Shown here: in pieces, positions 47,485-52,319 of the stretch | Layout: every line of letters begins with the position of its first letter | Position numbering within the stretch: position 1 is the stretch's first letter | Origin: an uncultured Candidatus Saccharibacteria bacterium | GTDB lineage: Bacteria > Patescibacteriota > Minisyncoccia > Phycocordibacterales > UBA5272 | NCBI GenBank assembly: GCA_964546555.1 | Contig: CAZJJX010000006.1 | Span: forward strand, 545-64,544 | Direction: 5' to 3' | Length of the DNA: 64,000 nucleotides | Program-made: the position numbers and the translations under genes | Notes under the pieces: generated by a model | What the model saw: only the letters and a program-made list of their open reading frames with translations | Databases searched by the model: none | Told to the model about the DNA's origin: nothing

Positions 47485-48069
47485 ATGCAAACCCTTGTCT
47501 CAGAATCTAACCAAGATGCAACCGATGAATCGATTGCGCTTTTGGTTATAGAGGGTGACAAGGAATTGTTCGGGGTACTTATTGATCGCTATGAACAAAA
47601 AATAGCACGCTATATACGAAAGTTCACCCAAGAGAAGGAGGATATCTCTGATATTGTACAAACTGTTTTTATAAAAGCATATACAAACCTTGCAAGCTTT
47701 GATACGACTCGATCATTTAACAGTTGGATCTATAGAATTGCACACAATGAGAGTGTAAATCATCTTAAGAAAAAAACCGGAGAAAAAATTGCATTTATTG
47801 ATTTTGACACATTTTTTCCGCATCCATTCTCTCCTTTTTCACCAGAAATAGATTTCCTCTCCAAGGAATCCAAAGAACAGTTAGAAAAATCGTTAACTCA
47901 TATATCTCCAAAATACCGTGAAGTTCTCGTCTTATATTATTACGAAGAGCTTTCCTATCAGGAGATAGCAGATGTATTAAGAATCCCCGTTGCAACAGTT
48001 GGTGTACGCCTAAAGCGTGCAAAAACTGCACTAGAAAAATCTCTCCTAGATAATCATTACCAATCATGA
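47485..48069 (+). CDS. ECF-type RNA polymerase sigma factor
   Basis: Region 2 (DIVQTVFIKAY....FD......SWIYRIAHN) and region 4 (YREVLVLYYYEELSYQEIADVLRIPVATVGVRLKRAK). Confidence 0.9.
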   Translation: MQTLVSESNQDATDESIALLVIEGDKELFGVLIDRYEQKIARYIRKFTQEKEDISDIVQTVFIKAYTNLASFDTTRSFNSWIYRIAHNESVNHLKKKTGEKIAFIDFDTFFPHPFSPFSPEIDFLSKESKEQLEKSLTHISPKYREVLVLYYYEELSYQEIADVLRIPVATVGVRLKRAKTALEKSLLDNHYQS

Positions 48070-48800
48070 ACTCACTAAAAGAAAAAATTTTACATACTGT
48101 TAAGCACGAAAAAATTTCGATGATACCTCGCTGGAAGTTTTTGCTGTATTCAGGTACCGTACTTTTTTCACTTGTATTTCTTATTCTTTCGCTCATTTTT
48201 GTGATGAGTCTAGCGATGTTTCTTTTGTCTTCATATGGTTATTTGGAAATGCCACTTGAGGATTTCGGGGAAATGATTCGTACACTTACGGCAGTACCTG
48301 TTTTTCTTTTCTTGACAATGATCGTCCTGGTTGTTCTTATTGAATTTGTTGCAAAGCAGTACACTACTGCTTTTAGACGCCCAGTACTTGTTATGCTTCT
48401 TATTATTACACTTAGTTCGTTGTGTATTGGGTATGCTGTTAGTAAGACACCGATGCATGAGTATATGCATACATATATGAAAAAGCATCGCTTTGAACGT
48501 GCGTCTTCTATGTATGATAGACCTCGACCACGAACATCTCCAGATGGGCTAGATATTATGCGTGGTGAGATTACCTCAGTTGTAGACACAGGGGCAACCA
48601 TAAAACTGTTTAATGGTGAAGAGATTGTTGTAGATTTTGAGGAGCTCTCTACAAGTAGTGTAAGTAAGCGATTACCAGTTGCCGGTGATGATGTTGTCAT
48701 GCTTGGCACTTCAACACAAGGTAGATTTGTCGTAAAGAAAATCAAAGTTCTTCCAGCTAAAGATGGCACAGGAAGACCCTCTCGTTCATTTGTGAAATAA
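48066..48800 (+). CDS. membrane protein, putative anti-sigma factor (by position)
   Basis: ATGA overlap with the sigma gene and about 4 TM helices. There is no zinc-binding anti-sigma motif, so the call is positional only. Confidence 0.5.
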   Translation: MNSLKEKILHTVKHEKISMIPRWKFLLYSGTVLFSLVFLILSLIFVMSLAMFLLSSYGYLEMPLEDFGEMIRTLTAVPVFLFLTMIVLVVLIEFVAKQYTTAFRRPVLVMLLIITLSSLCIGYAVSKTPMHEYMHTYMKKHRFERASSMYDRPRPRTSPDGLDIMRGEITSVVDTGATIKLFNGEEIVVDFEELSTSSVSKRLPVAGDDVVMLGTSTQGRFVVKKIKVLPAKDGTGRPSRSFVK

Positions 48801-49474: not shown

Positions 49475-50425
49475 ATGATGAAAGTTTCTAGTAGTCTACC
49501 AGATCTTGTTGTTTTGCGAGGTGGTGCTGATAATTTTAAGCGTTCACTGCAGGATGGGGCAGATGTTTTGGCTTCTCTTACAAAGATAGGCTATGAGCCA
49601 GTTGATGTTCTTATTGATAAAGAAGGGCAGTGGACGGTGCATGGATTTCCAACAGATCCACATAAGGTCTATACGCGTGCACACACCGTCGTCGACACAA
49701 CGCGTATGACGGGGCAGCCGTATCAAGCGATTGCAAAAAGGATGAACATACCACTTATTTTTTCTAAAGATGAAGTTATGACTCTTGATAGAGAAGATCT
49801 TTACAGACTCCTTAGACAACAACAAATACAGTGTCCAGATACACTTGTTGTGCGCGCTAATCAACCACTTAAAGACAGTCTCTTTAGAGAGGTCTGGACT
49901 AAGTTCCATACACCGATCCTCGTAAGACCGCTTCATCCGCACAGGTCTGTTTCTTCAAAAATTATTAAGATATTTCATGACCTTGAGGCAACCGTTCGCA
50001 AGTATCACGAAGAAGGGGTTGATATCCATATACTTACGTATAAGAAAGCTCATACGACATCAATGGCTATACTTCCCCAATTCCGTAAACAAAAAATATA
50101 TGTACCAATGTGGGTGGATACATTCCCAGAAGAAGGTTCGCTTCCAGGTAAAGACTCTCGTATGCAGCCACATCTGCAAGCGCCGGAATTTAGACGTGAG
50201 AATATGCATGCTATTGCAAAAAAAGTGTACCAAGCACTTGGGCTAACAACACCTGCATGTATTGATCTTGTGCATCATAATAATAATTATATTGTTGTTA
50301 ATGTTGACCTGCATCCATCCCTTAGTAGAGATGGGAGATTTATGCAGTCACTTAAGACAACAGGGGTTGATGCTGGGCACTATGTGCATGAGTGCATCAA
50401 GAGGTCATATGACGTCACAGGATAG
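49475..50425 (+). CDS. divergent D-alanine--D-alanine ligase-like ATP-grasp protein
   Basis: The overall architecture follows Ddl (VVLRGG....SL.DG..V...L...GY.PV.VLIDKEGQW; PILVRP; CIDLV...YIVVNVD). GSSVG is HRSVSS, and E.N..PG is NVDLHPS. Confidence 0.5.
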   Translation: MMKVSSSLPDLVVLRGGADNFKRSLQDGADVLASLTKIGYEPVDVLIDKEGQWTVHGFPTDPHKVYTRAHTVVDTTRMTGQPYQAIAKRMNIPLIFSKDEVMTLDREDLYRLLRQQQIQCPDTLVVRANQPLKDSLFREVWTKFHTPILVRPLHPHRSVSSKIIKIFHDLEATVRKYHEEGVDIHILTYKKAHTTSMAILPQFRKQKIYVPMWVDTFPEEGSLPGKDSRMQPHLQAPEFRRENMHAIAKKVYQALGLTTPACIDLVHHNNNYIVVNVDLHPSLSRDGRFMQSLKTTGVDAGHYVHECIKRSYDVTG

Positions 50426-50534
50426 TAAGCTTATTAGTGTTATTTTAGGGTTGCCACTTATTATTGCTTTGATTATGTATCTATTGCGTTACTATCTCTA
50501 ATTTCTTATGTGCATCAAGGTACGTATTTAGTTA

Positions 50535-50569
50535 AAAATAAAATTAAAAATACCTCGCATAGCGAGGTA
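50535..50569 (-). terminator. terminator of the small-ORF pair
   Basis: TACCTCGC-ATA-GCGAGGTA, followed on the minus strand by TTTTTAATTTTATTTTT. Confidence 0.7.
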
Positions 50570-50614
50570 TAGTCAATGTAACTTAATTTACAAGATGTTG
50601 TTAAAAAAACCTTT

Positions 50615-50761
50615 TTAAAGTGCTCCATGTATCTCCGGAATATGTTGACACATAGGAGAGAGTTGAGCGATGAAGTCGTTGGTTTTATTAGATGAATCAA
50701 GTCTAGGTGGTTTTCTTTCTGGATCATTTTCATATACAGGTACAATAGTTTTTGGTATCAC
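50615..50761 (-). CDS. 48-aa small protein, paralog 1 (not in ORF track; different frame from track ORF 50515-50745)
   Basis: AAGGAG, 3 nt, GTG. The product is VIPKTIVPVYENDPERKPPRLDSSNKTNDFIAQLSPMCQHIPEIHGAL, and the stop lies before the terminator. It is homologous to 50825-50988, with synonymous third-position differences. Confidence 0.45.
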   Translation of the reverse strand: MIPKTIVPVYENDPERKPPRLDSSNKTNDFIAQLSPMCQHIPEIHGAL

Positions 50762-50824
50762 AGACTCCTTTCTGGTTAATTCAAGCAAGATTTTAGAAAA
50801 TCAATCTTTTATTTCGTATTTTTT

Positions 50825-50988
50825 TTAATTGAAACCAAAAACAGAAGAAGATAGTGCTTGAGTGATTTCAGGTACTGGAGTGTATCCACAAATTAGATAG
50901 AAAGAATCAAAGATCTTTTTTTGAAAGTAAGATCAATTTCCTTGTTTTCTGGATCATTTTTTGGCAAAATGACTAGATTTTTTACCAT
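50825..50988 (-). pseudogene. small protein paralog 2, interrupted by a -1 frame change at an A7 run
   Basis: ATG 50988 gives MVKNLVILPKNDPENKEIDLTFKK, then the A7 run (plus-strand T7 at 50916-50922). The frame stops at 50893, while the -1 frame continues IFDSFYLICGYTPVPEITQALSSSVFGFN to 50825. Confidence 0.4.
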
Positions 50989-51105
50989 AATTAAGTCCTT
51001 TCAGTCGATTAAGGTGCATTCATTTTTTATCTTAGCACATCTGTTAATCTATGTCGAAATTGTTGGCTTCAGCCTTAGGTGTTACCAGATTATTCTTACA
51101 CTTAA

Positions 51106-51141
51106 AAAGTAAAAACCGCCCCTCTGGTAAGTATGGCGGTT
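51106..51141 (-). terminator. terminator hairpin upstream of the small-ORF pair
   Basis: AACCGCC-14 nt-GGCGGTT, followed on the minus strand by TTTTTACTTTTT. Confidence 0.6.
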
Positions 51142-51509
51142 ATTACTGTGTCTTATTACTAAAAGTTCTAAGAGACGTCTTTGTTTGATGCGTACAGTTG
51201 CTCCTTAAGCGTTGTCTAAATACTTAAACAAAACTTAGATGCTCCCGCCTTTGTTGGTATATATACTTATTAAGAGTATCTATACAAACAGTTGTTCGAA
51301 GCCGCATCTTGCTTTTGTATTAGCGATAGAGTTAGGTTATGTGATTGCTCATATAACGCTTCTATTAAAATTGCTAATAACGAAACAACTGCCTACATAT
51401 AAGTGTAGCACCAACTGTGATATACTCAAGTGGTACAAGGGTAAGTTATTCACATGTTGTCTGTTTTGTGATTACTCTCACTAACCCCTGATTATGAAGC
51501 TATGAAGCT

Positions 51510-52319
51510 ATGAAGAGCGCTAAACTGTCTTATGCTATCGATAAAGAATTTATACGCGAATGTCTTACTTACTATAAGGCACACGGAAGACATGAGTTGC
51601 CGTGGAGAAAACGAATCACGGCATACAAAATTCTTGTAAGTGAGATAATGTTACAGCAAACGCAAGTAGCACGTGTGCTTCCAAAATATACACTATGGAT
51701 GAAGCGCTTCCCGACACTTCGAGCGCTACAAGGTGCATCGTTACAAGAGTTACTAATTCTTTGGCAAGGGCTTGGTTATCAAAGGAGATGTAAAGCACTC
51801 TACGCTATTGCAAAAGAACATAAAACGTTACCGAAACACTATAATGAACTACTTAAGTTACCGGGGATAGGAGTGTACACCTCCTCTGCGATTTGTGCAT
51901 TTGCATACAATAGATTTGATCACCCACTTCTGGAAACTAATATTAGAACTGCACTTATTGAATATTATTTTCAAGCAGAGGAGAGTGTGCACGATGGGAT
52001 GCTTTATGATGTGCTTGATCGCTTGGTTACTTGTAAGGAAGTACAAGATATCGGTGCACGAGGTTTTTACTATGCGGTCATGGACTTTGGTGCTTACTTG
52101 AAGTCAAATAGAATTTCTCATAACGCAAAGAGCGCACACTACAGTAAACAATCTGCTTATAAGGGATCCTTTAGAGAGTTACGTGCTAAAGTACTCTTTG
52201 CTATCACACATCACTCGCACCTTCCGAGTGACCCTCGTGTTAATGATGTGCTTGATCGTTTGGTTAAAGAAGGATACATCACAACAGATAAACAAGGGGT
52301 CTACGTAATACTGAATTAG
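51510..52319 (+). CDS. HhH-GPD DNA glycosylase, MutY/Nth-like but lacking the 4-Cys Fe-S loop
   Basis: LPWRK...YKILVSEIMLQQTQV and the HhH LPGIGVYTSSAICAFAYN. After MDFGAYL there is no C-x6-C-x2-C-x5-C motif, and the C-terminus looks winged-helix-like rather than NUDIX. Confidence 0.75.
   Translation: MKSAKLSYAIDKEFIRECLTYYKAHGRHELPWRKRITAYKILVSEIMLQQTQVARVLPKYTLWMKRFPTLRALQGASLQELLILWQGLGYQRRCKALYAIAKEHKTLPKHYNELLKLPGIGVYTSSAICAFAYNRFDHPLLETNIRTALIEYYFQAEESVHDGMLYDVLDRLVTCKEVQDIGARGFYYAVMDFGAYLKSNRISHNAKSAHYSKQSAYKGSFRELRAKVLFAITHHSHLPSDPRVNDVLDRLVKEGYITTDKQGVYVILN

Follow-up and report, generated by a model that had tools for sequence, protein, structure and literature searches.

Several described systems combine a run of adenines with a protein that continues in another reading frame. 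In E. coli dnaX, with its A_AAA_AAG heptamer, and in the transposases of IS1/IS3, an A-rich slippery stretch is followed by protein sequence in the -1 frame. Low-level 'corrective' shifting at indels has been documented, and productive bacterial transcriptional slippage involves runs of ~9 A or T (PMC5009743). Work cited in that article describes how transcriptional slippage rescues indels at poly(A) tracts in Buchnera and Blochmannia. Ordinary pseudogenes of accessory genes in reduced genomes are marked by one-base deletions, nonsense codons with legible homology beyond them, lost conserved residues and neighbouring gene remnants.

The locus described here, a tandem pair of small genes termed P2 and P1, can be compared with each of these. 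It resembles dnaX and IS1/IS3 in its A-rich slippery stretch and in the continuation of P2 in the -1 frame, but its heptamer is out of phase, a 3' stem-loop is absent, the shift is not conserved in orthologues, and inspection by eye revealed no clear 5' Shine-Dalgarno-like stimulator at the right distance. With the endosymbiont cases it shares an AT-rich reduced genome and a frameshift in an A run; in contrast to them, the tract in P2 has only seven adenines and the gene carries further lesions that slippage could not repair. The ordinary accessory pseudogene is matched in all the respects listed above, although here the parent family has no earlier description and its proteins are very small (55-62 residues), and two paralogues decay side by side. 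The reading favoured here, with a probability of roughly 0.7, is that P1 and P2 are a decaying gene pair with real pseudogenising lesions, as their sequences suggest, and not a case of programmed frameshifting.

The window, meaning the whole 64,000-nucleotide stretch of DNA that was analysed (G+C ~39%), comes from a Saccharibacteria (TM7) genome. P2 and P1 lie on its minus strand within a 1.08-kb gap between two plus-strand genes, a Ddl-like ATP-grasp gene (49475-50425) that is a full-length but weak match to D-Ala-D-Ala ligase models, and a MutY-type glycosylase gene (51510-52319). Scanning species-representative genomes with the Ddl-like protein returned eight loci with 61-75% protein identity to the window, six from MAGs labelled Saccharibacteria and two (L005 and L007) labelled Candidatus Paceibacterota. 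The gene order Ddl, MutY, RluB was preserved in six of the eight, namely those long enough to tell, and Ddl identity to the window was 75% or less in all relatives found.

The original prediction described two ORFs, a plus-strand T7 run and a 15-mer common to both copies, the pair being bracketed by terminators. All of these elements are present, with the 15-mer at 50716-50730 and 50946-50960. The bracketing was likewise confirmed: a 13-bp inverted repeat lies upstream (51108-51120 / 51135-51147), and a terminator-like hairpin (50570-50550) belongs to the intrinsic terminator that closes the pair (50540-50570, minus strand), which has a 9-bp stem with five GC pairs followed by a T-rich tail and faces the convergent Ddl-like gene. 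No terminator was seen between P2 and P1 in the window. A BLASTP comparison of P1 with a repaired P2 (one A added) gave E = 2e-4 as a single comparison, and each copy also matches family members in other genomes independently, so that their similarity is beyond chance and the proposal that they are paralogues holds.

P2 (50825-50988, minus strand) was delimited by tblastn with the public protein cluster P0007 and by DNA alignment with four orthologues. It is a P2-type small-protein gene, frameshifted and C-terminally truncated, and the syntenic orthologue of P0007, P0011 and the genes in L005 and L013. Its ATG at 50988 is preceded at a distance of 7 nt by a Shine-Dalgarno-like GAAAGGA (50996-51002), an arrangement also found in L015. 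Further upstream lies a sigma-70-like promoter match (51029-51057; TCGACA, 17 nt, TG-TAAGAT), which is a consensus match only, in a region where the count of such matches is no higher than shuffled expectation. Frame 0 encodes MVKNLVILPKNDPENKEIDLTFKKRSLILSI and stops at 50895-50893, while the -1 frame encodes KKIFDSFYLICGYTPVPEITQALSSSVFGFN and stops at 50827-50825. P0007 matched the window in two different frames, with residues 1-27 at 50988-50908 and residues 23-62 at 50923-50804 (joint E = 1.9e-14). Adding a single A produced residue-for-residue colinearity with this intact 62-residue protein, as expected from the suggestion that a -1 shift at the A7 run restores P2.

The A7 run (50916-50922, plus-strand T7) sits inside an 11-nt purine-rich stretch that is one base shorter in the window than in every orthologue in a DNA alignment with four distinct orthologues. 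The window reads TTC AAA AAA AGA TC- TTT GAT, in which the exact deleted base is not assignable, L013 reads CTC AAA AAG GAA ACT TTT GAT, L015 reads CTT AGA GAA GAG ACT CTT GAT, and the other two read CTA CAA AAA GAA GTA CTG GAC and CTG AAA CAA GAA ACT CTT GAT. The A run at the homologous site does not exceed A5 in these four, and six distinct orthologous sequences are all in a single frame without a long A run at the site.

These alignments bear directly on recoding, in which a -1 ribosomal frameshift or transcriptional slippage at the A run would yield a full-length protein. RNA polymerase and ribosomes can both slip on A runs, and homology does continue in the -1 frame, but the two-frame layout is conserved in none of the single-frame orthologues. 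The phase of the site is also wrong: frame 0 is TTC AAA AAA AGA, giving C_AAA_AAA or A_AAA_AGA, and the efficient A_AAA_AAG heptamer is found in the -1 phase alone. Folding of the 76 nt downstream is weaker than that of shuffled sequence (MFE -5.4 kcal/mol versus a shuffled mean of -7.95, z = +1.09), and seven adenines fall short of the ~9-base runs of productive slippage, all of which makes recoding at this site highly improbable. Low-level adventitious slippage on the A run is always possible, and its product would still be truncated and divergent.

The frameshift is not the only lesion in P2. Its TAA at 50827-50825 is premature, sitting at the Ser codon of the orthologues eight codons ahead of an ancestral TGA (50803-50801), and the region from the one to the other (50801-50827, minus strand) still encodes a ghost tail KKYEIKD, comparable to SKEYTVRD before the stop in an orthologue. 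The P0007 match continues through the premature stop to 50804. At the C-terminus the window thus reads FGFN-stop-KKYEIKD-stop, as against FGFLSKEYTVRD and a stop in L011/P0007 and FGFFSKKYKV and a stop in L013. TAA is a genuine stop in the window, where 22 of 44 long ORFs end in it, more than in any other stop codon. Even when repaired, P2 keeps only 9 of the 16 columns that are well conserved in the family and has lost the other seven; the losses include the P of PDL, the ET pair at the shift site, the F of DF, an R, and one F of GFF.

Homopolymers are the commonest place for indel errors, and the colinearity with P0007 gained from one added A would equally be seen if the true sequence were A8 and P2 a continuous 54-codon gene. 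Such an assembly or sequencing error is nevertheless unlikely, as the repaired gene would still have the premature TAA and would still lack seven of the 16 conserved residues, the ET pair at the very point of the shift among them. The window holds 39 A7/T7 and 14 A8/T8 runs (55 A/T runs of 7 or more), yet no frame-split ORF pair apart from P2 falls at a long homopolymer run, one abutting pair overlapping an A6. Two independent short-read assemblies of the same strain, L001 (JGI, 99.95%) and L002 (Logan, 100%), match the window over 4.6 kb without any indel, an agreement that covers sequence outside the A7 run only, since L001 ends at 50717 and L002 begins at 51181. The interval 50718-51180, left uncovered by both, is a point in favour of an error. 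SRR12487045 and JGI metagenome 3300045345 both hold this strain, at 99.95-100% identity.

The two assembly breaks were also considered from another side. L001 breaks inside P1 beside the shared 15-mer and L002 inside a conserved non-coding element upstream, and breaks flanking the locus in this way may be due to chance, to low coverage or to strains that differ in the island. Population heterogeneity would suit a phase-variable contingency locus, where slipped-strand mispairing of the A7 run during replication switches P2 on and off, and a homopolymer inside a small accessory gene of a variable island is the kind of place where this might be sought. However, A/T contingency tracts are usually longer than seven, the orthologues lack a tract at the site, and the 'on' form would still be truncated and divergent; phase variation is accordingly rated as very unlikely.

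P1 (50615-50761, minus strand), delimited by tblastn with P0003 and by the family alignment, has a GTG start and 48 codons ending at TAA 50617-50615, and its product is VIPKTIVPVYENDPERKPPRLDSSNKTNDFIAQLSPMCQHIPEIHGAL. Its AAGGAG Shine-Dalgarno (50765-50770) lies 3 nt from the GTG, compared with 6-8 nt in P1-type orthologues and 5-7 nt in P2-type genes. P1 had been taken for an intact paralogue, and this part of the original prediction did not survive: residues 13-53 of P0003 matched 50722-50600 (E = 1.7e-5), a match that crosses the P1 stop, and the premature TAA sits at the Arg codon of the orthologues with KGFF directly after it, ahead of the conserved GFF motif. The ghost tail (50588-50614, minus strand) is still legible as KGFFNNIL followed by a stop, with AAA GGT TTT TTT in the window and AAA GGT TTC TTT in L013 (P0003). 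P1 retains 11 of the 16 conserved columns, and three of those 11 lie downstream of its stop. A 76-codon ORF (50515-50745, minus strand) overlaps P1 in another frame; it was judged spurious because it has no homologue and the overlapping P1 frame bears the family homology, and an exact-protein look-up found its product absent from the records. The choice of the P1 frame as the coding one was therefore right in that it is the ancestral frame. For annotation, the 76-codon ORF is miscalled, the true frame belongs to a small-protein family without a curated model, and two pseudogenes are to be marked at the locus.

Decay of both copies would follow from these lesions. In related genomes the gap is a variable island that usually holds one or two members of a lineage-specific family of soluble proteins. 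Against that background, P2 would have lost one base in its purine-rich stretch, which now reads A7, as well as gaining a TAA eight codons ahead of the ancestral stop and losing seven of 16 conserved residues, and P1 would have gained a TAA just ahead of its GFF motif. With lesions in both copies, the frameshift looks like an ordinary loss-of-function deletion and not like a recoding signal. Among the four options offered earlier for the A7 interruption, a pseudogene lesion is favoured because the orthologues are single-frame without a long A run, P2 has its premature TAA, residues beside the shift are replaced and there is no stimulatory structure; error, phase variation and slippage were not supported. 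The A7 site in P2 opens no new recoding mechanism. The most that would be made is a 31-residue N-terminal piece of P2 and a P1 truncated to 48 residues. Their expression is possible given the retained start signals, which run counter to decay: P2 retains its start codon, Shine-Dalgarno and promoter-like site, and P1 a strong Shine-Dalgarno. Moreover, C-terminal tail length varies across the family, so that early stops alone might be tolerated.

By homology, P1 and P2 belong to what the sequence comparisons indicate is a previously undescribed family of proteins of 55-62 residues. Members were gathered by iterated searches of a word-indexed collection and by an exhaustive HMMER scan of 1.84 billion cluster representatives, which yielded 11 intact members from Saccharibacteria genomes, metagenomes and one phage-like contig, including uncalled ORFs in L005 and L013. 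A first family search using the two window sequences alone as query had found nothing, and exact-protein look-ups of ORFs of the locus (57, 48, 31, 76, and 63 residues) found none on record. A tblastn search with repaired P2 gave a single-frame match in L005, located between its Ddl and MutY genes (41.5% identity over 53 residues, E = 1e-9), and a weaker one in L003. The public clusters P0001, P0002, P0003, P0007, P0009, and P0011, all named 'hypothetical protein', are intact single-frame ORFs of 58-62 codons; the P0011 call, at 74 codons, begins at an upstream start. At least six contigs from different samples carry P0007 in identical form. They share with the window copies clear homology and the position beside Ddl and the conserved terminator element, but the reading frames of P1 and P2 are interrupted or truncated and had received no gene call.

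Members are recognised by the signature P-[DN]-L ... E-T-x-[DN]-F ... R ... Y ... I-S-x-x-L ... G-F-F ... Y. Two types can be told apart, a P1 type (..PDLTPxxETIxFLxRLxPxxxxCPxISxGLRxGFF..) and a P2 type (..PDLxLxxETxDFFxRICGYTPxPxISQALxxPxFGFFSKxY..), which have in common the 16 well-conserved columns, defined as conserved in at least 9 of the 11 intact members. Intact members keep 13-16 of these, and P1 and P2 are the most divergent members at family-conserved positions. The window copies show whole-length similarity and the syntenic position of the family, but an uninterrupted ORF of 55-62 codons with the C-terminal GFF..Y motif is found in neither of them; with P2 frameshifted and stopped after FGFN, and P1 stopped before KGFF, they are relics and not intact members.

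Repaired P2 and its L005 counterpart differ at 22/15/33 sites by codon position (pN 0.32 versus pS 0.76), in genes whose shortness makes dN/dS uninformative about relaxed constraint. Among divergent members the differences concentrate at third codon positions, which is the pattern of coding sequence under purifying selection as judged from these alignments. The synonymous differences between P1 and P2 had been read as selection acting now; they reflect past selection in the family instead.

No family match was found in Pfam, NCBIfam, PHROGs, PADLOC, PDB sequences or, using Foldseek, PDB folds, with one search giving only E-values of 0.02 or weaker. AlphaFold returned a two-helix model of low confidence (pLDDT 65 and 68 for two models). 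Three search results were set aside. L012, a metagenome-scan match to a query of P2 and L005, is a K+ channel RCK domain with a chance FYLICGYTP; P0004 and P0005, from the search of representatives, are long repeat proteins with low-complexity matches, the profile searches otherwise returning family members only. The idea that the L003 gene is a P2/P1 chimera was dropped, its N-terminus being closest to the P1-type P0003. As a separate observation, the P1-type genes of L003 (3219-3040, minus strand) and L011 (209-388, plus strand) differ at 29 nucleotides, all in the first 17 codons, and are identical in the other 43 codons; the pattern resembles that of recombination with a breakpoint within a 59-codon gene.

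At least five other lineages have a P2-type gene at this position, following the conserved terminator element and convergent with the Ddl-like gene, and in all of them it is in a single frame (L005, L011, L013, L015-19, L020-23). These genes have their own Shine-Dalgarno and their own terminator and face the 3' end of the Ddl-like gene. The same syntenic order, with a family gene after the element and convergent with Ddl, is found in L003, L005, L011, L013, L015-19, and L020-23. The content of the island differs: P2 only in L015-23 and L005, P1 only in L003, P1 then P2 with an ATGA overlap in L013 (460-809, plus strand), P2, a terminator, and P1 in L011, P2 then P1 in the window, and neither in L004, L006, L009, and L010. 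The tandem pair is hence a recurrent but unstable arrangement. The ATGA overlap in L013 points to translational coupling and perhaps to a heteromeric product; in ENA, the second gene is called past its TAG stop as far as the contig end.

Further uncharacterised genes of 107-122 codons lie between the small ORFs and Ddl in some relatives and are absent from the window: L003 2568-2927 (plus strand), L011 501-824 (minus strand), L015 5299-5667 (minus strand), and L010 4747-5040 (plus strand). The L003 and L011 copies are identical, the L010 ORF is similar by inspection only, and the L015 type has 122 codons. Searches of Pfam and NCBIfam with those of L003/L011 and L015 found nothing.

A distant family member, P0006, and its relative P0010 are located on L014 (6001-6168; the 197.6-kb JGI contig Ga0172278_1657) among many small same-strand ORFs. 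Neighbouring genes encode a dCMP deaminase, a peptide deformylase, and an HNH endonuclease, and the contig looks like a large phage genome. Patchy presence, rapid rearrangement, the translational coupling in L013 and the distant members on the phage-like contig make it probable that intact family proteins are dispensable and context-dependent. A guess at their role would be a small accessory regulator or adaptor that is quickly gained and lost, possibly acting as a homo- or heterodimer. A bolder proposal is that the family is a new class of small accessory proteins exchanged between Saccharibacteria and large phages, seated in a hypervariable island by a highly conserved sRNA-like element, with the A7 run as a working switch or a slippage-rescued site; I consider this combination very improbable. 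Irrespective of role, a recognisable and syntenic small-protein family is added to the Saccharibacteria, ultra-small epibionts whose small proteins are, to my knowledge, almost unexplored.

The constant presence of an ATP-grasp gene beside small peptides containing Cys, Thr, Asp and Glu raises the thought that the small ORFs are RiPP precursor peptides processed by the adjacent Ddl-like enzyme, the more so as this protein scores well below the Ddl family cut-offs. It nevertheless aligns full-length to TIGR01205, its matches are restricted to D-Ala-D-Ala/D-Ser/D-Lac ligases, and no peptide-maturase model matches it. The genes are convergent, each with its own terminator, the Ddl-like gene is kept in the peptide-less loci L004, L006, L009, and L010, and conservation extends across the whole peptide with no division into leader and core. 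A RiPP system is for these reasons barely credible.

The upstream border of the island is formed by the conserved non-coding element (51106-51210, minus strand), which ends in a terminator hairpin. Over its ~105 nt the element is 82-93% identical at the nucleotide level among more than 11 Saccharibacteria loci, although the Ddl proteins of these loci are only 61-75% identical. It contains an invariant block, CGCATCAAACAAAGACGTCTCTT, the 14-nt loop of the terminator hairpin is invariant, and the stem shows compensatory changes at four base pairs in the RNAalifold structure. A search of the upstream terminator and element against Rfam gave only a sub-threshold match to ohsC_RNA (E = 0.23). The element may be a 3'UTR-derived or stand-alone small RNA, and at this locus it stands, very well conserved, at the edge of an island whose content turns over fast.

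Decay at the locus extends to the adjoining DUF1508 (YegP-like) gene, which is present in the window as a remnant (51211-51400, minus strand) with homology at the DNA level only. L005, L006, L008, and L009 still have an intact copy (Pfam E = 2.6e-10), while DNA-level homology alone is left in the window, L003, L004, L010, L013, and L015. The remnants of L003, L013, and L015 have kept the stretch GATAAAAAAGCAGATGCGGCTTCAAA with only 1-3 differences; the remnant in the window has also kept the 3' half of it, GCAGATGCGGCTTC. On the other side of the Ddl-like gene, the window encodes an ECF-type sigma-70 factor (47485-48069, plus strand; TIGR02937, E = 1.7e-34) whose last 4 nt also begin a 244-codon ORF (48066-48800); this ORF had no family match and may encode the anti-sigma partner of the adjoining ECF sigma factor.
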